This document shows positions 16,213 through 61,325 of a stretch of DNA of 64,000 bases, one piece after another (within the stretch, counting starts at the first letter, position 1; each line of letters begins with the position of its first letter). The DNA is from Octopus vulgaris (lineage: Eukaryota). The stretch spans positions 52,452,001 to 52,516,000 of the forward strand of contig OX597826.1 of NCBI GenBank assembly GCA_951406725.2, read 5' to 3'. A model generated the notes under the pieces. The model was not told the DNA's origin and did no database searches. It saw nothing but the letters and a program-made list of their open reading frames with translations. Made by a program: the position numbers and the translations under genes.

Positions 16213-16934
<722 letters not shown>

Positions 16935-22499: not shown

Positions 22500-22647
22500 A
22501 CGGTATGTCTTTTCTACTCTTCTGATAAAATTTTGTGCAATATAATGTGCTAATTACTGGAATTTAATTATTTGGTAAAGATCGAAACAGCTGTAAGAGA
22601 ATATGTTGAATTCTTGCAGTTAATAAATTATGTTAATGCTACATCTG

Positions 22648-23348: not shown

Positions 23349-23352
<4 letters not shown>

Positions 23353-26308
23353 GAAATGAAGAAAATGCTGACAAAATAATTTAAGTAAGGGAGAGTGTAT
23401 TTAATTAGGTGAAAGTTCTTTTTACCAGTTGCGCATTTGTTATGTTTATCAAAAGATATTTTTTTAAGATTTGCTTGGTTTCGCGCCTAAAATTTCTTGT
23501 GGACAATGGTCAATACAATTTTGATTGGTCATTATAAAGGGGTCACGTGAATATTTGAAGGGAAGTTGGTGTTGGGGTAAGAAAATAGGCTCCAGAGATG
23601 TTAAAATTTGGCTAGTGTCGCGCCTAAAATTTTTTATTGGTCATAATAAAGAGGTCACGTGGATGTGGTCATAATAGAGAGGTCACGTGAATGTTTAGAA
23701 TGAATGTTGGTGTGGGTGGTGTATGGAGTTTTCGAAAATAGCGTTGTTGAAAATTCTTATTGTTCAGGCTGGTCAGTAGACGTCATGTGGATATTGTAAA
23801 TAGCTTTTTAGCGCATAGTTAAGGAGTGTATTTTCCGCTTGACTGAATTTGAGCTGGATAAGTAAGTTCGTTTCGGACGGGAAGAGCTATATGTATGTAT
23901 GTGTGTGTGCGCACGCGCGCGCGCGCGCGTGTGTGTGTGTGTTTATATGTATGTTGGGGCGCGCGCGCGTGTATATATGTGTGCGTGTGTGGGTACAATT
24001 TTCAATATTTATAGTTCTGCTGGCCTTGTGCCTGTATCGGGAAACAACGTGTTTGTGTGAAGTCAATATTTACAGTGATTTCCAAAAAATAGTGTTGGAT
24101 GTTTTGCACCCGTATCGAATTATGTGTATGTGTGGAACCGTATATTTGCGTGTGTCATAGTGTTAATATCTGGGTAAAAGTGTGTTTAGGGTGTGTGCAG
24201 GTGTAAGTGTGTTTGTTGTGGGTTCGTGTTAGGGGGATGTGTTTAGAAGTGGTCTGTATTTATTAATAAGGTGGGATTCCATGGTTATTCGCTGGGTATG
24301 AGTGGCATTGTCTTTAAATTTGTAGAGGGGAAAATTCAAAAATTGGGATGAAGTTGTGCGGCACAGGTATCAATATGTGCACTAAGTGCTATTTTTCTGT
24401 ATTCCTGTATTTTTATTTGGGATCTGTGGACAGTCATGCGTTGGCGGAGGCTATTTTTAGTTTGGCCTATGTAGTGTTCATTACAGCCCGAGCAAGTTAA
24501 GACATATACTAGGTTTTCTGATGCGCATGTGAAGTTGTGTTTTACTGTGAAACGTTGTCCTTGTTTAAAAAGGAATTCCGGACCTTCTATTAGGTTGATG
24601 CATATACCACAGTTGGGTCTATTGCATTTGTTTACTGTGGGTTTAGTTGTTGTGGTTGGCAGTACTTTGGCATTTGTTAGGATGGTTTTCAATGATTTGG
24701 GTTGCCTTTTGCTCTTTATGATTTCGTGTGTTAGGATTTGGTTCATTCTATGGTCCTTTTTTAATACAGGAATGTTCTGGAGGATGGTGTCAAAAGCTTC
24801 ATTGTTGAGGGGGTTGTGTGTAGAGATGTATGGTAGAGTATGGGGTTTCGATATAACAGGTTTAGGGCGTCTAAGTTCCTGTGTGCTGAGTTTTAGGGTT
24901 CGTTGGATCCCATTGTCAATTAGTGACGTGGGGTAATCCCTGCTTGTTAATGTGTCCTTAAGTTCTTGTAGACGTAAGAGACGGGTGTTTTTATTGGAGA
25001 CTATAGTGCAAATTCTCTTGGCTAAGTTGTAGGGAATGTTAATTTTAACGTGTCTAGGGTGGCATGAATTGAAAGGGAGGTATTGCTTGGAGTCTGTGGG
25101 CTTGTAGTATATGTCTGTTTCTATTTTTTTGTTGTGAATTTTAATGAAGATGTCGAGGAAGGGAATTTGTTGAGGGCTGTATTCAATTGTGAAAAGAATG
25201 TTTGTGTTGAGCCCATTTATAAGGGTGTGAAATTATTTAAGCTTCTCGGCGGTTTCGGGCCAAAGGATGAAGCAGTCATCAAGATATCTCTTCCAGTTCT
25301 TCTCTATGTGTGTGTGGAGAGTGGTGCCAAATTGGTTAAGAACGTTATTATAGAGGGTTATTTCCAGGTGTCCCTGGACACTTTTACCCAGATATTAACA
25401 CCATGACACACGCAAATATATGGTTCCACACATACACATAATTCGATACGGGTGCAAAACATCCAACACTATTTTTTGGAAATCACTGTAAATATTGACT
25501 TTACACAAACACGTTGCTTCCCGATACAGGCACAAGGCCAGCAGAACTATAAATATTGAAAATTGTACCCACACACGCACACATATATACACGCGCGCGC
25601 GCCCCAACATACATATAAACACACACACACACACACACGCGTGCACACATACATACATATAGCTCTTCCTGTCCTAAACGAATTTACTTATCCAGCTCAA
25701 ATTCAGTCAAGCGGAAAATACACTCCTTAACTACGCGCTAAAAAGTTATTTAAAATATCCACATTACGTCTACTGACCAGCCTGAACAATAAGAATTTTC
25801 AACAACGCTATTTTCGAAAACTCCATACACCACCCACATCAACATTCATTCTAAACATTCAAGTGACCTCTCTATTATGACCACATCCACGTGACCTCTT
25901 TATTATGACCAATAAGAAATTTTAGGCGCGACACTAGCCAAATTTTAACATCTCTGGAGCCTATTTTCTTACCCCAACACCAACTTCCATTCAAACATTC
26001 ACCTGACCCCTTTATAATGACCAATCAAAATTTTATTGACCATTGTCCACAAGAAATTTTAGGCGCGAAACCAAGCAAATCTTAAACAACTCTGGAGCCT
26101 CTTTTTTCACATATAAGAGACAGCAAACCCAACATAAAGTCAGATAAGAGAAAAATATCTATCAGAAAGGAACTCTATCTCTCTTAAAAAAATATCTTTT
26201 GATAAGCATAACAAATGCGTAACCGGTAAGAAGAACTTTCACCTAATTAAATACACTCTCCCTTACTTAAATTATTTTGTCAGCATTTTCTTCATTTCCT
26301 TTTTTTAT
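23349..26308 (-). mobile_element. 5'-truncated Penelope-like element (Neptune-like) with ~830-bp inverted terminal repeats
   Basis: 23349-24183 is an inverted copy of 25378-26308; the right arm has an extra ~95 bp. Internal RT and GIY-YIG on the minus strand. Flanked by TA repeats. Confidence 0.9.
24240..25372 (-). pseudogene. PLE reverse transcriptase C-terminus, Zn-linker and GIY-YIG endonuclease
   Basis: WKRYLDDCFILW...IPFLDI...YYKPTDSKQYLPFNSCHP; CNRPNCGIC linker; NLVYVLTCSGCNEHYIGQTKNSLRQRMTVH. In-frame stops present. Confidence 0.9.
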
Positions 26309-26346
26309 ATATCACAACTCGTGTTCCACATCTCCTTTTTTAAATA

Positions 26347-26384
<38 letters not shown>

Positions 26385-27516
26385 AGATATATAGATATCT
26401 ACACTTATGTATATACATACATAAATATATATTTATTTGTATGTATATATATATATATATATTACATACATATGCATGTATGTATATGTATATACTTATG
26501 TGTGTGTCTTCCTCTCTGTGGTTGTTCCCTCACTGTCACTTGACAACCGATGTTTACGTCTCCGTGATTTAGCCGTTCGTCCTAACAGTCCGATAGAGTA
26601 AGCTTCCAAAGAATACATCCTAAGATCACTTTCTTCGACTAAAAATACCTTTAAAGAGTTGTTCCACTCGGACAGATTTTGTATGGCTGAATACCTCTTC
26701 CTAAGTAATACTTTACCATATCCAGATATGTTATATGGCGGATTGGAAACGAAGGACACCTCTTGCATGTCAGTGACACTTGCTTACTACGATTGCCTGT
26801 TGTCAAAGCAAGGTGACAGTAAAGCAATCCCCCCACTTAAACCTATATTTACGTAAAAGTACATATATGCGTATAAATATACATACGTGCATATATACAT
26901 GCAAATATATATACATTCATATATATTATATATATATATATATATAAATATATGAGTAGTTTCGTTTTAGTTATAAGAATATACCATAAGCAAGTATAAA
27001 AAATGGAGATGTTGAAACAGAAATAGATTTATTATAAAACTGGATTCAATGCATACGTATTGCCTTCCCATTACCGCTTGGCAATTGGTGTTGGTTTGTA
27101 CATGTCCCTGTAATTTAACAGTTCGGCAAAGAGACCGATAGAATAGATACTAGGCTTTAAAATAAGTCCTGGGGTCGATTTGTTCAACTGAAATTCTTCA
27201 AAGCGGTACTCTAGCATAGCTGCAATCAATAGACTGAAACAAATAAACAAAGACACACACATATATATCTAGAGTAGATGAAACCACGGCGACTGAAGAA
27301 GGGGTTTTTTCCTTGTGTTATTTGTCCTGTACTCTATTTTTTGTTGTTTAAGAAAAATGTCCAGTTCCTTGGGTTTGTGTCTATGTTTTCGTTTCTCATT
27401 GTGTTCGACGTTTTTTTTGTGTCCTGTACTCATATATGCGTGTATATATACATGTAGAGGTTGGTACGTACATATATGTATATATATATATGCATATGTT
27501 TTATTTATTAATATAT

Positions 27517-27547
<31 letters not shown>

Positions 27548-27566
27548 ATGTATATGTATATGTATG

Positions 27567-27644
<78 letters not shown>

Positions 27645-28243
27645 CATACACACATATATATATATATGTATATACGAATGAATGTATGTATGTATAAGTC
27701 AGTCTCCGCCTTTTCTTTGTAGAAGTTTTATAGTTATGTACTCCAGTAGAAATAAGTGGAAAATCGTTTGGTCGAACGTTAGATTGTTTTTATATATGAC
27801 TTGACATAAATGTGTGTGTATGTATGTGTGTGCGTGCGTGCATTATGTTTGTTCAGCATTATATATTATTAAGGTGGGTCTATTTTATGGAAGACTATAA
27901 ATAAACGACGGTATGATTTGCGAACCAACCCTCTTTAACTCGCCAAAAGTTTACGAATAACGAAGTACTGTATAATGCGTAACACATATAGTTGTAAAAG
28001 TTTCCTGTGGCATGGAGGTCGATACAAGTTCTAGAATGGATCGGTAGGGAAACAGCCATTCGTGGTATATAAATTGTAGATCTGCATTGAATTACTGAGT
28101 GACTTAAAGGAATTAAATTAATAGTCAACATTGTTTTAAAAGAGAAAACGAATACGGAAGCAATTGCTTTATCTCAAAGCTACTTGTAATCCTTGCGCTT
28201 AAAGCATATATCTTCTTTATTATTTATTGCATAACTTTAATTA

Positions 28244-29528
28244 CGAGGGACGTTCAATAAGTAATGCCTCTAACCCACTTGTTTGATCTAGCTGAAATTT
28301 TGCATGTGCAATCATTTATATCTCAATAGAGTAAGTGTCAAATTACAGCTCTGAATTAATTGTAGTGTCTGATTTACAGGCGTTTGAACCGAGTCAAGTG
28401 TGAAATGGAACCTGTTGAGTGTCGAGCAGTGATCCGGTTTTTGTATTTGAAAGGACGCACACCACGGGAGACTTTTCATGAAATGAAAGTAACTTATGGT
28501 GATGATGCCCCATCATATGAACTTGAAAAACGCTGGCATCGTGAATTCAAACATGGTGGGAACTCTGTGGAAACAGCTCCCAGATCTGGTCGCCCCCTTC
28601 TGCCATTGATGAGGCATCTGTCCGTCATGTTGAGTCTGCCATTTTGGAAGATCGACGCATAATTATTCGCCAAATAGCCCATGAGGTCAAGATTAGTACC
28701 GGGTCTGTGGAAACTATCATTCATGACCATTTGCATATGCAAAAGGTGTCTGCCAGATGGATTCCCAGGTTGCTCACGCCTTTCCAGAAGCAAGAACGCG
28801 TCGAGTGCTCGAGGGTGAATTTGGAGATGTGCCAAGAAGATGAGTCAAAATTTTTCAAAAGACTGATTACACAGGAAGAAACCTGGGTCCATCACGATGA
28901 TCCAGAGACCAAAGCCCAGTCAATGCAGTGGAAGCACCGTGACTCACCCCCTCCAAAGAAGGCAAGGGTGCAGCCCTCCGCTGGCAAGGTCATGCTCACA
29001 GTCTTCTGGGAGCAGGACGGAGTAGTGATGACAGATTTCCTGGCAAAGGGTACCACAATTGCAGGAGCCTATTATGCTTCACTTTTGAGGAAATTAAGAG
29101 AGGCTATCAAAATCAAGAGGCGGGACAAGATCAGCAAAGGCATCCTCCTCCTGCAGGACAACGCTCCGGTCCACAACTCGCTTGTCGCCAGATCAGAAGC
29201 ACAAGCGTATGGCTATAAACTCCTCCCCATCCCCCCTACTTTCCTGACCTTGCACCCTCTGATTTTCACCTCTTCTCAATCATGAAGTTGTTTTTGAAAG
29301 GAAAGCGTTTCCCAGATGATGCAGCCTTGATTTCTGAAGTCACGTTGAGGTTGGAGGAACAAGCTGGGTTCTTCTACAAAAACGGTCTCCAGAGCCGCAT
29401 CAAACGATGGGAGAAATGCGTAACTCTGGGTGGTTCCTATGTAGAAAAAGACTAATAACTGTGCCAAGTTTCGTTGCTCTACTGCTATGGGAAGTGGGTC
29501 AGGGGCATTACTTATTGAACGCCTCTCG
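28244..29528 (+). mobile_element. Mariner (D,D34D) transposon, 1285 bp, TA-flanked, probably irritans-like
   Basis: TIRs CGAGGGACGTTCAATAAGTAATGCC / GGCATTACTTATTGAACGCCTCTCG, with TA on both sides. Confidence 0.95.
28405..29455 (+). pseudogene. Mariner transposase pseudogene
   Basis: MEPVECRAVIRFL, RSGRP, WIPRLL, TQEETW (first catalytic D replaced by E), QDNA, PDLAPSDF. Frameshifts near 28600 and 29230. Confidence 0.92.
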
Positions 29529-29667
29529 TATTTACATAAATTATCTAATCATTAATATAAATTGATATATATTATTTGATTGTTACATAACCTTAATCAT
29601 TTATTACATAACTACAAGGTTGCATATATAGTTTTTCTTTTTGTGGCTGCGTGTCAATTATATTCTT

Positions 29668-30420
29668 TTCTACTCTAGGCACAAGGCCCCAAATTTTGGG
29701 GGAGGGGGCCAGTCAATTAGATCGACCCTAGTACGCAACTGGTACTTAATTTATCGACCCCGAGAAGATGAAAGACAAAGTCGACTTCGGTGGAATTTGA
29801 GCTCGGAACATAAGGACAGACGAAATACCGATAAGTATTTCACCCAGTGTCCTAAAGTTTCTGCCAGCTCACCGCTTTAGTGCCTCAATTATATTGATCC
29901 AAGTATTCAACTGATATTTATTTTGTCGACTTCAGATTTGTTTAATAATCCTTTCTTCTATGGGGGAAGGGGCTAGTCAATTACATCGACCCCAGTCCTT
30001 AACTGGTAATTTTTAAATCAAACCCCAAAATTATGAAAAGCAGAGTCGACTTCGGTGGAATTTGAACTCAAACGTAAGGACGAACGAAATGCCGCCAAGC
30101 ATTTTCCAGGAGTACTATCGATTCTGTCAGCTCACCGCCTTAGTTTTTGTTTTAGTAATAACCGTTTCTAGACCAGAATTTTGGGGGAGGGTTTAGTTTA
30201 TTATATGGCTCCTAGTACTTCACTAGTATTTTATTCACCTCAACGAAATTAAAGGCAATGTTGACTGCAAGCAGAAACAATTACCACAAAACATTTTGTC
30301 AGACGCTCTATCGATTCTGCCAATCCACCACTCTACGCTGCTGTAATAATGATTACTGTGTTAATTTAGACACAAAACCAGCAATTTTGGGAGAAGGAGG
30401 TAGTTGGTTGATCGACTCAA
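29668..30420 (-). mobile_element. Tandem cluster of 3-4 SINE family D copies of differing decay
   Basis: Repeated TTTTGGGG(G)AGG...GTCGACTTCGGTGGAATTTGA...CAGCTCACCGC units. Mirrored at 31440-32280. Confidence 0.7.
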
Positions 30421-30449
30421 TTCAATTCAATATATATATATATATATAT

Positions 30450-30795
30450 AATACGGAGATGTACTCGCATAGCAAGTGATTTGATCTGACATCGTGTGCT
30501 GAAACGAAAACAATTGCAGCATGGAAGGTGTTTGTAAGCCATTTAAGAAACATACAAAAGCCGTTCGATTCACTTCAACATTTAAGTTTAATTTGTCAAA
30601 ATATTTTCGTCGCTAAAATCCGCGACCTGTTCACTGACAAAAATACGTGCTGCATCTGATTTTTGTCAGTGAACAGGTCGCGGATTTTAGAGACGAAAAT
30701 ATTTTGACAAATTAAACTTAAATGTTGAAGTTAATCGAACAGCTTTTGTGTGTTTCTTAAATTGCTTAAAAACACCTTCCACGCTGCAATTGTTT
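30450..30795. mobile_element. Short palindromic element (arms ~30508-30645 and ~30659-30795) with hammerhead-topology motifs
   Basis: Near-perfect inverted repeat flanked by (TA)n. Each arm carries TTTGTCA-GTGAACAG-GTCGC-loop-GCGAC-GAAAATATTT-TGACAAA (right arm has GAGAC). Confidence 0.85.
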
Positions 30796-30837: not shown

Positions 30838-32420
30838 CTTCCGCAGTAAACTAAAGTTTAATGCGGAAGATATTTGGCCAAGTTTCCATGTATTAAAAGA
30901 GAACCCAGGGTCACGCATGTTTGAAGTGAACTTTTTAACAAGCCTATGCTTACAGTTGCAAATAATTTTTAATATTGTTGCGTGTTAGTGTACAGGTAAT
31001 GTTAGAAGGTTAGTTGCTGTATGTATGTATGTAAACTAGTGGTTGATAGTGTGTGATCTATGTATTCGCTTTATTGTGTTTTGTTAAACTCTGTGTGAGA
31101 ATTATATTTATTTTCTTTATACAATTATTGTTTTCTTATATCTTTTATATCACTATCGTTTTTAGTGACGTCAGAAGTGTTCTAGTTTTTCTTTTTATTA
31201 TGTTTGTATATTATGAAAATTGTTCGTCCGCTCACCCAACCTCACCTCATATCTCATTCGATTATTGCCATCGATTTTGGCCGTATACTTCAATCAGAAA
31301 TCAATACTTTAATGTCATTACCCAGTTACATCATAACCTATGTGTATCAAAGAATAAAACCATTTTATTAGCGTTAGTACTGAAGCAGGATAGGGAGATA
31401 CCTTCGCAGAATCGATAGAGGTTCAATATGATGTTTTAAAGTGTTGTGTCGGATCTTTACGTCCTGTGTTCAAATCCCGACGAGTCCAATTGACAGCTTT
31501 CTCATTTGGAACGGAGAATTGAATTGAATTGAGTCGATCAACCAACTACCTCCTTCTCCCAAAATTGCTGGTTTTGTGTCTAAATTAACACAGTAATCAT
31601 TATTACAGCAGCGTAGAGTGGTGGATTGGCAGAATCGATAGAGCGTCTGACAAAATGTTTTGTGGTAATTGTTTCTGCTTGCAGTCAACATTGCCTTTAA
31701 TTTCGTTGAGGTGAATAAAATACTAGCGAAGTACTAGGAGCCATATAATAAACTAAACCCTCCCCCAAAATTCTGGTCTAGAAACGGTTATTACTAAAAC
31801 AAAAACTAAGGCGGTGAGCTGACAGAATCGATAGTACTCCTGGAAAATGCTTGGCGGCATTTCGTTCGTCCTTACGTTTGAGTTCAAATTCCACCGAAGT
31901 CGACTCTGCTTTTCATAATTTTGGGGTTTGATTTAAAAATTACCAGTTAAGGACTGGGGTCGATGTAATTGACTAGCCCCTTCCCCCATAGAAGAAAGGA
32001 TTATTAAACAAATCTGAAGTCGACAAAATAAATATCAGTTGAATACTTGGATCAATATAATTGAGGCACTAAAGCGGTGAGCTGGCAGAAACTTTAGGAC
32101 ACTGGGTGAAATACTTATCGGTATTTCGTCTGTCCTTATGTTCCGAGCTCAAATTCCACCGAAGTCGACTTTGTCTTTCATCTTCTCGGGGTCGATAAAT
32201 TAAGTACCAGTTGCGTACTAGGGTCGATCTAATTGACTGGCCCCCTCCCCCAAAATTTGGGGCCTTGTGCCTAGAGTAGAAAAGAATATAATTGACACGC
32301 AGCCACAAAAAGAAAAACTATATATGCAACCTTGTAGTTATGTAATAAATGATTAAGGTTATGTAACAATCAAATAATATATATCAATTTATATTAATGA
32401 TTAGATAATTTATGTAAATA

Positions 32421-33705
32421 CGAGGGGCGTTCAATAAGTAATGCCCCTAACCCACTTCCCATAGCAGTAGAGCAACGAAACTTGGCACAGTTATTAGTCT
32501 TTTTCTACATAGGAACCACCCAGAGTTACGCATTTCTCCCATCGTTTGATGCGGCTCTGGAGACCGTTTTTGTAGAAGAACCCAGCTTGTTCCTCCAACC
32601 TCAACGTGACTTCAGAAATCAAGGCTGCATCATCTGGGAAACGCTTTCCTTTCAAAAACAACTTCATGATTGAGAAGAGGTGAAAATCAGAGGGTGCAAG
32701 GTCAGGAAAGTAGGGGGGATGGGGAGGAGTTTATAGCCATACGCTTGTGCTTCTGATCTGGCGACAAGCGAGTTGTGGACCGGAGCGTTGTCCTGCAGGA
32801 GGAGGATGCCTTTGCTGATCTTGCCCCGCCTCTTGATTTTGATAGCTTCTCTTAATTTCCTCAAAAGTGAAGCATAATTGGCTCCTGCAATTGTGGTACC
32901 CTTTGCCAGGAAATCTGTTATCACTACTCCGTCCTGCTCCCAGAAGACTGTGAGCATGACCTTGCCAGCGGAGGGCTGCACCCTTGCCTTCTTTGGAGGG
33001 GGTGAGTCACGGTGCTTCCACTGCATTGACTGGGCTTTGGTCTCTGGATCATCGTGATGGACCCAGGTTTCTTCCTGTGTAATCAGTCTTTTGAAAAATT
33101 TTGACTCATCTTCTTGGCACATCTCCAAATTCACCCTCGAGCACTCGACGCGTTCTTGCTTCTGGAAAGGCGTGAGCAACCTGGGAATCCATCTGGCAGA
33201 CACCTTTTGCATATGCAAATGGTCATGAATGATAATTTCCACAGACCCGGTACTAATCTTGACCTCATGTGCTATTTGGCGAATAATTATGCGTCGATCT
33301 TCCAAAATGGCAGACTCAACTTGACGGACAGATGCCTCATCAATGGCAGAAGGGGGCGACCAGATCTGGAAGCTGTTTCCACAGAGTTCCCACCATGTTT
33401 GAATTCACGATGCCAGCGTTTTACAAGGTCATATGATGGGGCATCATCACCATAAGTTACTTTCATTTCATGAAAAGTCTCCCGTGGTGTGCGTCCTTTC
33501 AAATACAAAAACCGGATCACTGCTCGACACTCAACAGGTTCCATTTCACACTTGACTCGGTTCAAACACCTGTAAATCAGACACTACAATTAATTCACAG
33601 CTGTAATTTGCCACTTACTCTATAGAGATGTAAATGATTGCACATGCAAAATTTCAGCTAGATCAAACAAGTGGGTCAGAGGCATTACTTATTGAACGTC
33701 CCTCG
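32421..33705 (-). mobile_element. Second mariner copy (transposase pseudogene 32494-33544)
   Basis: Same length, TIRs, frameshifts and flanks as 28244-29528. Confidence 0.95.
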
Positions 33706-34255
33706 TAATTAAAGTTATGCAATAAATAATAAAGAAGATATACGCTTTAAGCGCAAGGATTAAGAGTAGCTTTGAGATAAAGCAATTGCTTCCGTAATCG
33801 TTTTCTCTTTTAAAACAATGTTGACTATTAATTTAATTCCTTTAAGTCTCTCAGTAATTCAATGCAGATCTACAATTTATATACCACGAATGGCTGTTTC
33901 CCTACCGATCCATTCTAGAACTTGTATTGACCTCCAGGCCACAGGAAACTTTTACAACTATATGTGTTACGCATTATACAGCACTTCGTTATTCGTAAAC
34001 TTTTGGCGATTTAAAGAAGGTTGGTTCGCAAATCATACCGTCTTCCATAAAATAGACCCACCTTAATAATGTATAATGCTGAACAAACATAATACACACA
34101 CACACATACATACACACACAATTATGTCAAGTCATATATAAAAACAATCTAACGTTCGACCAAACGATTTTCCACTTATTTCTACTGGAGTACATAACTA
34201 TAAAAATTCTACAAAGAAAAGGCTGATACTGATTTATACATACATACTTTCATTC

Positions 34256-34315
<60 letters not shown>

Positions 34316-34342
34316 ATGTATATATATATATGTGTGTGTGTG

Positions 34343-34388
<46 letters not shown>

Positions 34389-35024
34389 CATACATATACA
34401 TATACATATACATACACACACACACATATTATATATATATATATATATATAATATATTAATAAATAAAACATATGCATATATATATACATATATGTACGT
34501 ACCAACCTCTACATGTATATATACACGCATATATGAGTACAGGACACCCAAAAAAACGTCGAACACAATGAGAAACGAAAACATAGACACAAACCCAAGG
34601 AACTGGACATTTTTGTTAAACAACAAAAAAATAGAGTACAAGACAAATAACACAAGGAAAAAAACCCTTCTTCAGTCGCCATGGTTTCATCTACTCTAGA
34701 TATATATGTGTGTGTCTTTGTTTAATTGTTTCAGTCAATTGATTGCAGCTATGCTAGAGTACCGCTTTGAAGAGTTTCAGTTGAACAAATCGACCCCAGG
34801 AATTATTTTAAAGCCTACTATCTATTCTATCGGTCTCTGTGCCGAACTGTTAAGTTACAGGGACATGTACAAACCAACACCAATTGCCAAGCGGTAATGG
34901 GAAGGCAATACGTGTGCATTGAATCCAGTTTTATAATAAATCTATTTCTGTTTCAACATCTCTCCATTTTTTATACTTGCTCATGGTATATTCTTATACC
35001 TAAAACGAATCTACTCATATATCT

Positions 35025-37399: not shown

Positions 37400-37607
37400 A
37401 CATATTGTTTATTGAAAAATAAAAACCCCAAAATTTTATACGTGCTTAAGTCAGAGATTTTTCAGCGTGTGTGCGCGCAAATGGTACAAACACGCATGTG
37501 TGTGTGTGTACGTGTATGTACCATTTGCGCGCGCACTGGCAAAAAAAATCTCTGACTTAAGCACGTATAAAATTTTGAGGCTTTTACTGTTCAATAAGCT
37601 ATATGTA
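37400..37607. repeat. Palindromic MITE-like element (~85-bp arms)
   Basis: AAAATTTTATACGTGCTTAAGTCAGAGATTTTT...GCGCGCAAATGGTACA versus TGTACCATTTGCGCGC...AAAAATCTCTGACTTAAGCACGTATAAAATTTT. Confidence 0.85.
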
Positions 37608-41198: not shown

Positions 41199-41560
41199 AA
41201 ATTATATTAATCATAAGCACGCACTCATACGTTTACCTGCTAGAAATGACGCATAAATCTATATTTTTTGGTATTAGTATATACGTGGACCGGTTTCTGC
41301 TCTGATATAATAATCTTACTTTCCTCAGCAGGTAATACGTGCTGAGGAAGGTAAAGTTATATCAGGCCAGAAACAGGTCCACGCGTATCCTAATACCCAA
41401 ATATATAGCTTTATGAGGGATTTTTTGCCATCTGTTTCGCCCGGGCACTGTTGATTCTGTTAATATTTTCAGTGTTATTTTCGTGGTTTAAATGTGAGTT
41501 TTAGCTCTTATTTCTAGCAGGTAGATGTATGAGAGCGTCCGTAATGATTAATTTAATTAT
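41199..41560. mobile_element. Palindromic element with back-to-back hammerheads (41284-41332 minus, 41338-41383 plus)
   Basis: Plus: CGTG-CTGAGGA...GAAACAGGTC-CACG. Minus: CCTG-CTGAGGA...GAAACCGGTC-CACG. Outer arms TACCTGCTAGAAAT / ATTTCTAGCAGGTA. Confidence 0.8.
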
Positions 41561-47883: not shown

Positions 47884-48099
47884 AATTTCATTACAAACAA
47901 CATGGACCAAATTTCTTCTTAAGAAAAAATATATATTCATATAAATTAGACATTATATCATAAATAGCGATTGCGAAACCGGTCGATACATTAAAATTAT
48001 ATTATAACCATGTAAGTGTGCGTATTTTCCTTTTTTAATTTCTTATATATATACATGTATTGGGTATACATGTAGATGGGTTGGAATTGTGTACAAATT

Positions 48100-48277
48100 C
48101 TATATATTAAGAAAAAGAAAGCAGTCAATATTTGGGTGAAAATCATTCAATTAGCGCTTTACTCTCTTCAAAGGATTGATCATGGCTCATTCATAATGAA
48201 TCCCTTAAAGGGATGAAAGCGCTAATGAAATAGAGTTTATTCAAACCCTGGCTATCTTCTATTTCTTCCTATATATA
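48100..48277. repeat. Small degenerate palindrome with hammerhead-like arms
   Basis: Right arm TTCAT-AATGA-ATCCC-TTAAA-GGGAT-GAAAGCGCTA-ATGAA. Left arm mirrors it (TTAGCGCTTT...). TA flanks. Confidence 0.55.
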
Positions 48278-49036
48278 AAAGAATATGATATTACAAAGGA
48301 ATAAACGATTATCTTGAGAATTTATTAGCTTACATCTGTTTCTGATATAAGATGAAGTGGACTCATCAGCGGTGCCTCGAATATGAAGTGCAATTTAATT
48401 GGGAAAGGAACTACATTTATGCACATATTTCTGTATATATATATATATATATACTACCAGATATACCCGGCGTTTCTCGAGTATATAGCGATGGAACTTA
48501 GAGTAAAAACAATAGCGAAATTATATTTCATATTTCTTAATACGACCGGCAGAAAGTAAATAAGAAATTTTTACGGAAAATAATAAATTCTACGGGCTGA
48601 ATTGAAATTTGTCAGTGAACCAAAGATCCAGAATCGAAGGAACGAGAAAAAAGCCGTTAACAACAGAATAATACAAGACGGTTGCAAAAGTAAAGATAGG
48701 GAAAGTAACTAAGTGTACGGATTTAAGTGAAAGTTTTTTGAAGTTACTTCTGTCAGCGACTTATGATCATACTTTTGTATAGTAAATTATGTATGAAATT
48801 ACTTTCATAAATAATTTTGAACTTCTTTCTGTCAGTAATTTGTCGTTGTAGTTTGTAAATAGAGGTTGAAAACAATAGCGATGGAACTTAGAGTAAAAAC
48901 AATAGCCACTGAAAAATGAAAGTGAAAACAATAGAAAGTGAGCGAGATATATAAATAAAGAGAGAGAGAGTGAGAGAGCTAGTTAGACAAATAAGATAGA
49001 TATAGATTAATAGATACAGAGAGATAGATAGATATA

Positions 49037-50429: not shown

Positions 50430-50477
50430 GTCTTACAGCTGTTTCTGGGATATCAGGGATACCCCTTCATCAGAGAC
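50430..50477 (-). ncRNA. Minimal type-I hammerhead ribozyme (PLE-type)
   Basis: rc GTCT-CTGATGA-A-GGGGTATC-CCT-GATATCCC-A-GAAAC-AGCT-GTA|AGAC. Canonical core, stems I and II intact, palindromic stem III, GUA cleavage triplet. Confidence 0.75.
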
Positions 50478-57860: not shown

Positions 57861-57862
57861 TA

Positions 57863-57965
<103 letters not shown>

Positions 57966-57979
57966 ATGTATATATATAT

Positions 57980-59018
57980 ACATTATATAAAAGGGCTTAG
58001 TAAAATAAATTACTTTGCCGCATACTGAACTCATTAGAAATAGCAGCTAAAAAACTTTTTAAAACTATTTCTAATACTTAAAAAACCTCTCTCATATAGT
58101 GTTTGCTCAACTCAACTCACGAAAGTTTGGGGGTAAAGACATCAAAAAATCAAATGCAAAGGTTATTTGAGAACGTACGTTTCAAGATTAGTCAACACGA
58201 CACTTCTATCATCAGCTCAGAAACTCCTTGGTTTGGATTTGAAAACACTGAAAGTGAGAGCATACTCTTTCGGCATCTCATCGCTTTCGAAGATCTGCTC
58301 GTAACTAACAGTGCCAACAAACTCAAATATGCAAGCGAAGAATTTCTGTTCTCCCTTTCCACCAGCGTGGGTTAAAATCAGCAAACACTATGCTTATTTC
58401 GGTAAAATCCGAAGCATTAATTAGAGGGAGATTAATTATAATTTCAACAATTGAGGGTAAAATTAATTAATTATTAATCAATTTCACCAAGTGTTCAGTA
58501 TGCAAAGGGACCATTTAAGGCGAATTCAAATTATTACATTATATAAAGGGCTTAGTAAAATAAATTATTTGCCGCATATGAACTCATTAGAAATATATAC
58601 TTTTTAAAACTATTTCTAATACTTAAAAAAACCTCTCTCTATAGTGTTTGCTCAACTCAACTCACGAAAGTTTGGGGTAAAGACATCAAAAAATCAAATG
58701 CAAGGTTATTTGAGAACGTACGTTTCAAGATTAGTCAACACGACACTTCTATCATCAGCTCAAATAACCTTTGCATTTGATTTTTTGATGACTTACCAAA
58801 CTTCGTGAGTTGGAAACACTTATGAGAGAGGTTTTCTTTAAGTATTAGAAATAGTTTTAAAAGTTTTTAGCTGCTATTCTTGAGTTCAGTATGAAAGTAA
58901 TTTATTTTACTAACCCTTTATATAATGTAATAATTTGAATTCGCTTAATGGTCCCTTTGCATACTGAACACTTGGTGAAATTGATTAATTTAATTAATTT
59001 TACCCTCAATTGTTGAAA
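57980..59018. mobile_element. Partially tandem plus inverted PLE-type repeat array with two hammerheads (58168-58219 and 58711-58762, minus strand)
   Basis: 57980-58219 is repeated at 58537-58762. 58759-59018 is an inverted copy of ~58441-58714. rc motif TGAG-CTGATGA...GAAACGTACGTT|CTCA. Confidence 0.8.
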
Positions 59019-59029
59019 TCATACGATTG

Positions 59030-61325
59030 GACGCCACGCACCCATTTCCAAGTTAGTTTTATATACACTCCAGGAAAGAAGAAATCTGGAAGGCACCGAA
59101 GAACCTGTAACTTCTACCTGCGGGGCAAATGTTGGCATGTTGAGGGCGGCAAAAACTGCCGGTTCACCCACCCAACACCCCGCCAGAACTTCAGGGGATT
59201 CAAAGAGTAAAAGTTTACCGAGGGAACACAAGAAATGTCTCCCAGGAAAACTTTCAAAAACTAAGTGCGCTCCTCAGATGTTCTGCGCAACGCAGCAGCT
59301 GAGCAAGAGTCTTTTTTATGCATGGCGGAAAGAATTGTCCGGCAGCTAACCTGGCTACACCAAGCACAGAGAAGGAACCCTGCCCACCACTATGCAAGAC
59401 CACCACAGTCAACAGACACGGGATGGCCTCCCCTAACTCCTGCACAGCCGTCACCCCAATACTTTTACTAAATATTGGGGGCCTGTTGCATCAAAATAGA
59501 AACAAAATTTCTTTCCTGAGAGATCTTACTGCATGCAATCAAGCCCTATGCATAGCACTTGTGGAAACTCACCTCAACCTTGATATAGAGGACGCAGAAG
59601 TACACAAGGTTACAATAGAGTGTATTGACATTAGCGAAAAAGATGTCCTACTAGCCATAGATGAAGTCGACACAAACTCAACTGCTGGTCCTGATGGTTT
59701 CCCAGCCATCCTCCTCAAAGCGTGTAAGCATGCCCTGGCAAAACCCCTCAAGATTCTCTTCCAGAGCTTTCTTGCGAATGGCAAACTGCCAAGCAAGCTG
59801 AAGGAGGGAATAATATGCCCAATACATAAAGGGGGAAGTAGAGCAGATGCCAAAGACTATAGGCCTATCTCTCTGACTTCACACATCAGCAAAGTCAAAG
59901 AAAGGATAGTCAGAAAGAAACTAATCGCATTCCTTGAGGAGTAATACCCAGCATGGTTTTCGACCAGGTAGGAGCTGCCTGACCCAGCTCTTACAGCATT
60001 ATGACTGGGTGTTGAGGCAGTTACTCAACAAATCAAATGTGGACGTAATCTACCTTGATTTTGCAAAAGCTTTTGACAAGGTGGATCATGGTATGATATG
60101 CTACAAACCACGTGACCTCAGCATAGCTGGAAAACTTGGAGTGTGGTTGCATGACTTCCTGAAAGATAGGAGTCAGGCAGTAGTGGTTAATGGAGCCACC
60201 TCTATGAACACACAAATAGTGAGCGGTGTTCCACAGGGCACTATCTTGGGACCACTGCTTTTTATAGTGGCCCTCTCAGATATGCCCTCAAATGCCCGGA
60301 TAGCCACTCTGGCCAGCTATGCAGACGATACGAAAGTCTCGCAGAAAATACAGAACCCCAGCGATGTTGCACACCTGCAGCAGGAGTTGGACTCAATCTA
60401 CAGATGGGCTGAGGATAATAATATGCAGTTTAATGCTGAAAAATTCCAGGCCCTGCGCTACCAGCATCCAAAACTGAATATTAAACTTACAGGATACACC
60501 GGTCCACAGGGAATTTCAATCCCAGAACCTAAGTCTGTGAGGGACTTGGGTATCGACATGAGTGATGATACCTCTTTCCAAGTGCACATTACCAGGATGG
60601 CGACAAAGTGCAGACGACTGGCTGGGTGGATCCTAAGAACATTTTCTTTTCTTCTAGTTTCAGATCAGAGCTGCGGCCATGCTGATGCACCGCCGTTTTG
60701 TGCTACATTCGTCCTCAGTCGCCTGGATTACTGCTCACAGTTATGGTCACCCACCAGTGTAAAATTAACAGCAGACCTTGAAGCAATCCAGCGAAGATTC
60801 ACAAAGATCGTCTCTTTGCAACAGCTCAGCTACTGGGAAAGGCTGAAACAGCTGAGACTCTACTCCCTGGAGAGAAGACGGGTGAGGTATGCAGTAATAT
60901 ATGTCTGGAAGATCCTGGAAGGAATTGTGCCAAATTTTGGCATTGTAAGCTACACTAATACTAGAACGGGACGACACTGCATAGTGCCAAAGATCCCAGC
61001 AATGCCATCACGCTTCAGGACCAGCTTCTGTAACAGCTTGGGTTTCAAGGGCCCACAGCTTTTTAATATTCTCCCAAAGAGTCTGAGGAACTAGCACAAA
61101 GTATATGTAGCGGTTTTTAAATCAAAGCTGGACATCTTCCTGTCAAGACTCCCAGATGAACCTACCTCACGGCAAGAGGTGCAAATGAGAGTAGCTGTAT
61201 CAAACCTTCATTCTTCACCAAGTGCCACATATTAGACGAGGTTCGTCGCAATAACAGTGTAGCACAAAACGGCGGTGCATCAGCATGGCCGCAGCTCTGA
61301 TCTGAAACTAGAAGAAAAAAAAAAT
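59030..61325 (+). mobile_element. CR1-group LINE with an internal deletion, related to the 50722-54450 element
   Basis: TCNFYLRGKCWH; ILLLNIGGL..VETHL fused directly to the pre-RT region; RT ORF 59934-61094 with GVPQGTILGPLLF and YADDT; tail GGCGGTGCATCAGCATGGCCGCAG. Confidence 0.9.
59934..61094 (+). pseudogene. LINE reverse transcriptase ORF fragment (386 aa open)
   Basis: Recognisable RT motifs. Frameshifted from the upstream ORF and interrupted by a foreign in-frame segment. Confidence 0.85.

Follow-up and report, generated by a model that had tools for sequence, protein, structure and literature searches.

Endonuclease-positive Penelope-like elements insert as units that comprise a partial tandem and, at its 5' end, an overlapping inverted copy that is itself 5'-truncated (PMC3846280; PMC8557442; PMC11167929). 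Standard features of these elements are (TA)n targets, tails, palindromic joints and inverted 5'-truncated partners with overlaps (PMC3846280; PMC8557442), and in Pen2a from Adineta the inverted pLTR, 37 bp shorter than the direct one, shares a 15-bp overlap with it (PMC3846280; PMC8557442; PMC11167929). When a Penelope protein was purified, it nicked both strands of the target and extended them from start sites inside the RNA, which mark the ends of the genomic 'tails' (PMC11167929). Minimal hammerheads cut poorly in vitro, and opposite-strand pairs of hammerheads 100–700 bp apart were noted in Schistosoma in 2014 (PMC4209133). In PMC8557442 and PMC11167929, both the formation of Penelope-like head-to-head insertions and the in vivo cutting by weak minimal hammerheads are treated as open questions. 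In L1 twin priming, 5' inversions are joined by microcomplementarity and are accompanied by an internal deletion in 66% of cases (10.1101/2024.08.27.596794).

The window analysed here, a stretch of 64,000 nucleotides (64 kb) from Octopus vulgaris, is AT-rich and contains numerous microsatellites, SINEs and LINEs as well as one mariner. At positions 57979–59019 it carries a young insertion of a non-coding, hammerhead-bearing repeat of 556 bases. A (TA)n microsatellite (57862..57983), the apparent target, is present on the left side only, and its last bases overlap the element start (a 5-nt match to the template). Copy 1 (57979..58534, minus strand) is a complete 556-bp unit with 34% GC, no ORF of at least 120 aa and a strong predicted fold as a circle. 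Copy 2 (58535..58762, minus strand) is 5'-truncated, contains deletion-type errors and ends exactly at the upstream arm of hammerhead stem I. The inverted arm (58759..59019, plus strand) runs from the predicted cut site across the tandem junction to unit position 58441; it is made up of unit positions 58171 to 57979 followed by 58534 to 58441, that is, 287 unit bases written as 261, and extends 94 nt beyond the 3' end of the forward copy. It mirrors positions 58441–58714 around a 44-nt loop (58715–58758), and the insertion forms a palindrome of about 280 bp with this loop at its centre.

The right flank (59020..61324, plus strand) is an older, 5'-truncated LINE unrelated to the element, with a zinc-finger-like start, an RVT_1 domain and a poly-A end. 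Its 3' end has a 66-bp inverted copy within the same LINE (60642–60707 vs 61258–61323, 98.5% identical). Insertion of the LINE into the inverted arm was considered and rejected: no remainder of the unit follows the LINE, and the LINE is more decayed. Self-comparison found no remainder of the 556-bp unit elsewhere in the 64-kb window. The trinucleotide CAT at 57981–57983 recurs at 59020–59022; it may be a target duplication, though an uninformative one, as 3 nt are too short to count.

The motif scan (matches at 58215 and 58758) places a minimal type I hammerhead at 58168..58219 in copy 1 and a hammerhead at 58711..58762 in copy 2, both on the minus strand; the latter holds the 44-nt loop and the first four base pairs of the DNA palindrome. 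In both copies the minus-strand motif consists of stem I TGAG, the CTGATGA core, an extra U, a 25-nt stem II region, which is weak, GAAA, the palindromic CGTACG (stem III), TT, the predicted cut and the stem I arm CTCA. The stem I arms of copy 1 occupy 58216–58219 and 58168–58171, and the cut is predicted between 58172 and 58171; in copy 2 it is predicted between 58715 and 58714. This layout is that of Penelope-like elements (PMC4209133). Rfam gave no match in the 64-kb window at the gathering threshold, and the 19 matches at E up to 10 include no hammerhead family; hence the hammerhead call rests on the motif. The predicted fold has −6.6 kcal/mol (z-score 0.93 against shuffles), below the −5 used as a threshold for retrozymes in the broad sense, although the lowest fold is not the active one, which scores only −1.1. 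As a dimer the stem III palindrome is predicted to pair at −9.8.

The inversion joint is a 4-nt overlap, stem I itself, common to both arms (58759..58762). After CTCA copy 1 continues as GAAACTCC (58216–58227) and copy 2 as AATAACC (58759–58769), and the first base after the predicted cut is the start of the inverted arm (58759 corresponds to unit position 58171). The sequence-only reading had reported this divergence of the two copies, a strand switch at the CTCA/TGAG of stem I, and an inverted segment that begins just 3' of the predicted cut; all of this was confirmed. The inverted arm that it reported is also present, but ends at 59019 and not at 59018.

In its layout, a partial tandem with an inverted 5'-truncated copy at the 5' end, the insertion matches Penelope-like units, and it shares with them the minimal hammerhead (PMC3846280; PMC8557442; PMC11167929); the longer inverted arm and the (TA)n on the left may correspond to their one-sided extension and (TA)n target. 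It differs from Penelope-like elements in having no ORF with reverse transcriptase (RT) and GIY-YIG and in the length of the extension, 94 nt instead of the 30–40 of a Penelope-type tail, a comparison in which the tandem template leaves the boundary unfixed. In the accessible text of these three papers the overlap is not linked to stem I or to the cut site, whereas here it is. The resemblance to animal non-LTR retrozymes lies in the unit: a non-coding, low-GC tandem repeat with a hammerhead in each copy, many copies and a highly self-paired predicted circle (PMC7229834; bioRxiv 10.64898/2026.07.22.740005). However, its 556 bp exceed the 150–450 bp of the retrozymes in PMC7229834, its hammerhead, in which stem I has 4 bp, a U is added behind the core and stem III is palindromic, is of the minimal Penelope type instead of the canonical retrozyme one, and inverted arms, present here, are not described for animal non-LTR retrozymes in the accessible text of the two papers. 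L1 twin-priming inversions have in common with the insertion a forward segment longer than the inverted one, a microcomplementary join and an internal gap (10.1101/2024.08.27.596794); unlike them, it has no poly-A primer site, a tandem template, no clear target duplication and complementary bases that come from a ribozyme stem. In the open-access literature we found no paper in which the position of an inversion joint is linked to either stem I or the cut site, and none that invokes twin priming for Penelope elements.

By its sequence features the 556-bp unit falls among non-LTR retrozymes in the broad definition only (bioRxiv 10.64898/2026.07.22.740005), as two successive copies in tandem both hold a complete minimal type I hammerhead. 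Of the features named by Cervera and de la Pena 2020 it shows a GC content below 45–50%, the absence of any frame of at least 120 aa over 57979–59019 and a highly self-paired monomer, but their definition (150–450 bp, canonical type I hammerhead) excludes it by both length and hammerhead type. It is not an autonomous Penelope element either, given that the insertion lacks an RT and GIY-YIG ORF. The family is apparently an undescribed family of long retrozymes, likely mobilised by a Penelope-like reverse transcriptase. An autonomous partner did not emerge, which counts against twin priming: the Penelope remnant with GIY-YIG at 24336–25232 does not match the 556-bp unit, and four short hammerhead motifs gave 0 matches in the supplement of PMC8557442.

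Four sequencing runs (four studies, two organism labels), represented by contigs, were compared with the 556-bp unit alone. The numbers of matching records were 4037, 9559, 205 and 1567; the unit belongs to a very large, polymorphic, tandem family. The head-to-tail joint from 58534 to 57979 is present in all four runs. Four joints are listed across the four runs, and the inversion at stem I is not among them; as contigs drop rare forms, this falls short of showing its absence, but it lends no support to recurrence. One of the four listed joints does switch strand (58034/58085, in a single run). Depth steps near 58432–58450 occur in every run and were not counted, as similar steps occur elsewhere. 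In a word-based comparison with 24 runs, none of them listed as RNA, no run contained half of the words, and this comparison was not taken as evidence on expression or on the locus. A 21-base pattern of the unit was found 0 times in metagenome contigs. Candidate relatives from public contig collections, retrieved with 19- and 16-base patterns (9 + 2 + 3 loci), were rejected as chance matches: all 14 match over 16–22 bases only and lack a hammerhead core on the upstream side. Of 11 common variable sites, copy 2 and the inverted arm each cover nine; eight of these carry the copy 1 allele in either segment, with one gap each. Since alleles are shared at these sites, all three segments derive from one monomer sequence.

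That the joint was made by pairing of the stem I 4-mer is well supported. The downstream arm of stem I begins at the cut site by definition, and for this reason the inverted arm starts there. We therefore rejected the treatment of the joint at stem I and the arm start at the cut site as two independent coincidences: stem I pairing yields both, and cleavage is not needed. The 556-base unit offers 250 four-base snap-back stems with loops of up to 60 nt, at 152 of its 556 end positions. The use of stem I by pure chance has a probability of about 1 in 250, a value that concerns a single event in a many-copy family, noticed after the fact. CTCA occurs eight times per unit, and a cDNA whose end is the CTCA of the upstream stem I arm has three TGAG partners per unit, all of them matches of 4 bases, the one at the cut site being the nearest. 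A better, 8-base partner at 58322, available to a cDNA ending at the cut site, was not used; this is compatible with a first cDNA that stopped short of it. The sequence of the joint is the same whether one cDNA snapped back or two cDNAs annealed and does not discriminate between them, and a single joint has no power to show either ribozyme cleavage or snap-back.

We favour twin priming, in which two cDNAs of one insertion event were joined via the complementary bases of stem I, with a probability of about one half. The template would be a multimeric or circular RNA. The first cDNA would start at the (TA)n end, extend for 1.4 units and stop at the upstream edge of the hammerhead, ending in CTCA; this stop would coincide with the foot of a long predicted hairpin. 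The second cDNA, for which the other target strand would serve as primer, would begin near unit position 58441 and reach the stem I arm TGAG, its end there being due either to a cut in the RNA, which takes about half of the weight of the scenario, or to a trimmed overhang. The CTCA and TGAG ends could then pair and prime second-strand synthesis on each other.

The hairpin (58218..58348, minus strand) is predicted directly upstream of the hammerhead, and the pairs at its foot include two bases of stem I, the first two. The predicted fold of 58210–58365 has −42.4 kcal/mol, with pair probabilities of 0.89–0.95 at the hairpin foot. It is a candidate pause site for reverse transcription, although a crude pairing score places the stall site no higher than among the top 8.5% of positions. 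The circular fold of the monomer reaches −149.4 kcal/mol, compared with −108.7 ± 5.3 in 30 shuffles, and so is highly self-paired; stem I forms in it with a predicted probability of 0.003. By holding half of stem I, the hairpin might act as an off-switch of the ribozyme in the monomer. The variable sites were also placed on the circular fold (31 sites; 6 rare rows out of 37 left out). Nineteen of the 31 are unpaired, though only 38% of bases are; of the 12 paired ones, nine keep the pair and three break it; a candidate for compensatory change is the pair 58020/58503.

Twin priming is favoured by the match of the layout to Penelope insertion units (PMC8557442, PMC3846280), by the ability of the Penelope protein to nick and extend the two target strands (PMC11167929) and by the like layout, internal gap included, of L1 twin priming (10.1101/2024.08.27.596794). 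The internal gap that it implies would be 221 nt long and would contain the long hairpin. A TA repeat is joined to the unit at 58444 (two records from a single run). This lies 3 nt from where the inverted arm ends on its outer side, which we count in favour of twin priming; against it, this end is known from that one run and is one of the 24 loose ends listed out of 256. The shared alleles in the three segments also tell against twin priming to some extent, for they require both cDNAs to come from one RNA or one source locus. A further argument comes from the Penelope remnant at 23350–26345: its inverted arm has about 37 nt more than the forward one, and copying of the forward arm would be insufficient if these belong to the element, but they may be flank and not tail.

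Among the forms of twin priming, run-off of the second cDNA at a 5' end cut by the ribozyme would be the best account of the flush joint, though as an event we consider it rather unlikely. A similarly doubtful claim is the fuller one that the arm is a complete cDNA of an RNA whose 5' end arose in vivo, through hammerhead cutting in a germ cell, with stem I pre-encoding the join. Against such a cut, ribozyme mutants of an element from Anolis left insertion in vitro unchanged and none of the reads ended at the cut site (PMC11167929); the poor in vitro cutting of minimal hammerheads also speaks against it.

Six other head-to-head units were found in the window by self-comparison and the motif scan. 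None of them joins at the cut site, and the mechanism by which palindromic elements may arise according to the sequence-only reading does not hold for the palindromes of the window in general. The unit at 41239–41430 is a palindrome that keeps two opposite type I hammerheads and has its centre at the upstream stem I edge; its cores are at 41328 (minus) and 41342 (plus), and it belongs to a different family and is old and substitution-rich. The head-to-head centre of 30508–30795 lies inside a hammerhead-like motif, that of 16214–16795 about 60 nt upstream of one. Of the remaining three, one is centred in a Penelope RT frame and two have no recognisable motif. The elements at 30455–30795 and 16214–16795 are palindromes between microsatellites, and each of their arms carries a hammerhead-like half; the former has a one-sided extension of about 53 nt.

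The Penelope remnant (23350–26345) is 5'-truncated and has a YLDD RT motif and a GIY-YIG match (E 1.3e-4, at 24336–25232). The extension of its inverted arm occurs nowhere else in the window, and motif scans found no canonical hammerhead in the remnant. A 102-nt block missing from its forward arm was rejected as proof of a second template, because a short direct repeat bounds the block, which may have been deleted later. Hammerhead-like motifs that belong to other families and stand alone, with no inverted partner, are located at 50473 (minus), near 48370 (minus) and at 22522 (plus). The window also contains a 3.5-kb inverted duplication (26948–30431 and 31518–35022, 96.5% identical, 1.1-kb spacer) with a mariner transposase fragment (Transposase_1, E 9e-24), and older palindromes at 37400–37606 and 48098–48278, the arms of which have no recognisable hammerhead.

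The main alternative, proposed in the sequence-only reading, is that only one cDNA was involved, which halted at the upstream ribozyme edge, folded its last four bases onto the stem I arm 44 nt back and was extended back for about 287 nt before joining the target. We consider it possible and rank it below twin priming. Stem I pairing, the mirror geometry and the shared alleles are all in line with it: the arm is an exact mirror of the preceding DNA, even across the tandem junction, identical alleles in all segments come for free, the stem I TGAG is the nearest of the three partners, and the palindrome at 41239–41430 is a second element centred on the upstream edge of stem I. What did not stand is the joint as its signature, since two annealed cDNAs give the same one. 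Nor is the idea new here: self-priming on an antisense template was proposed in 2013 for Penelope head-to-head palindromes (PMC3846280). Against it, the 4-bp DNA stem has a predicted pair probability of about 0.02 (0.00–0.02 at three lengths) and lies 2.7 kcal/mol above the minimum, and about 250 equally long stems are available per unit. Moreover, a fold-back gives no reason for the arm to end 3 nt from another TA-flanked end, unless a nuclease sets this end, and the Penelope remnant in the window appears to need a second template.

The inverted insertion itself is real with high probability. Compared with copy 1, copy 2 has eight deletion events and one substitution (240 columns), and the inverted arm 16 deletion events and one substitution (290 columns). 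The small deletions described in the sequence-only reading are indeed present in the arm but are not confined to it, and its caveat of a chimeric read is unlikely to apply. That a fold-back or chimeric long read was carried into the consensus would fit the excess of gap events in copy 2 and the arm together (24 vs 2 substitutions), which sets them apart from the three other large inverted repeats of the window (61, 22 and 27 substitutions with 11, 2 and 3 gap events, respectively), and would also fit the stem I joint being missing from the four joints listed for all four runs. Nevertheless we consider such an artefact improbable. In a fold-back read the mirror would continue through copy 1 into the left flank, while the arm stops after 261 nt; the unrelated LINE sequence behind the arm would demand a second chimeric join; and the joint falls on a functional motif. 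A microsatellite-like motif to the left of the element (57961) recurs behind the poly-A end of the LINE (61325), which weakly suggests that the flanks were once contiguous; this pattern was chosen after the fact and has two matches in the window, a looser one having five. Gap-richness is not peculiar to this locus: the old, substitution-rich palindrome at 16214–16795 is also gap-rich in one arm (28 substitutions, 15 gap events), and nanopore reads have been reported to miss bases at real inverted duplications (PMC7229812). The deletions in both arms most likely arose through misreading of a young hairpin that is in fact nearly perfect. For the same reason, arm bases missing in copy 2 were rejected as proof that the arm was not copied from copy 2, both being error-laden.

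Least probable of all is a rearrangement after insertion, in which an array break or stalled fork folded back at the 4-bp inverted repeat and switched to the LINE, the array remainder being deleted: yeast and cancer genomes provide known examples of such inversions at short inverted repeats and the shared alleles fit, but two switches are required, the product is the standard Penelope insertion layout, nothing singles out stem I among the approximately 250 such stems, and the rest of the unit is absent elsewhere in the window.

The insertion is, then, an ordinary product of Penelope-type integration with a known layout, and the link of its joint to stem I is a good hypothesis that a count across the genome could address cheaply; it is no evidence of either cleavage or snap-back. 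In a many-copy family with a fixed landmark, counting of joints in one good assembly could test the origin of head-to-head insertions. If the arm was indeed copied from a ribozyme-cut RNA, a run-off cDNA at the cut would end in TGAG and a cDNA stalled at the hairpin foot in CTCA, sites that the double-hammerhead fold already pairs in RNA. The ribozyme would then template head-to-head insertions, and stem I joints would be a genomic record of in vivo cutting by minimal Penelope-type hammerheads.
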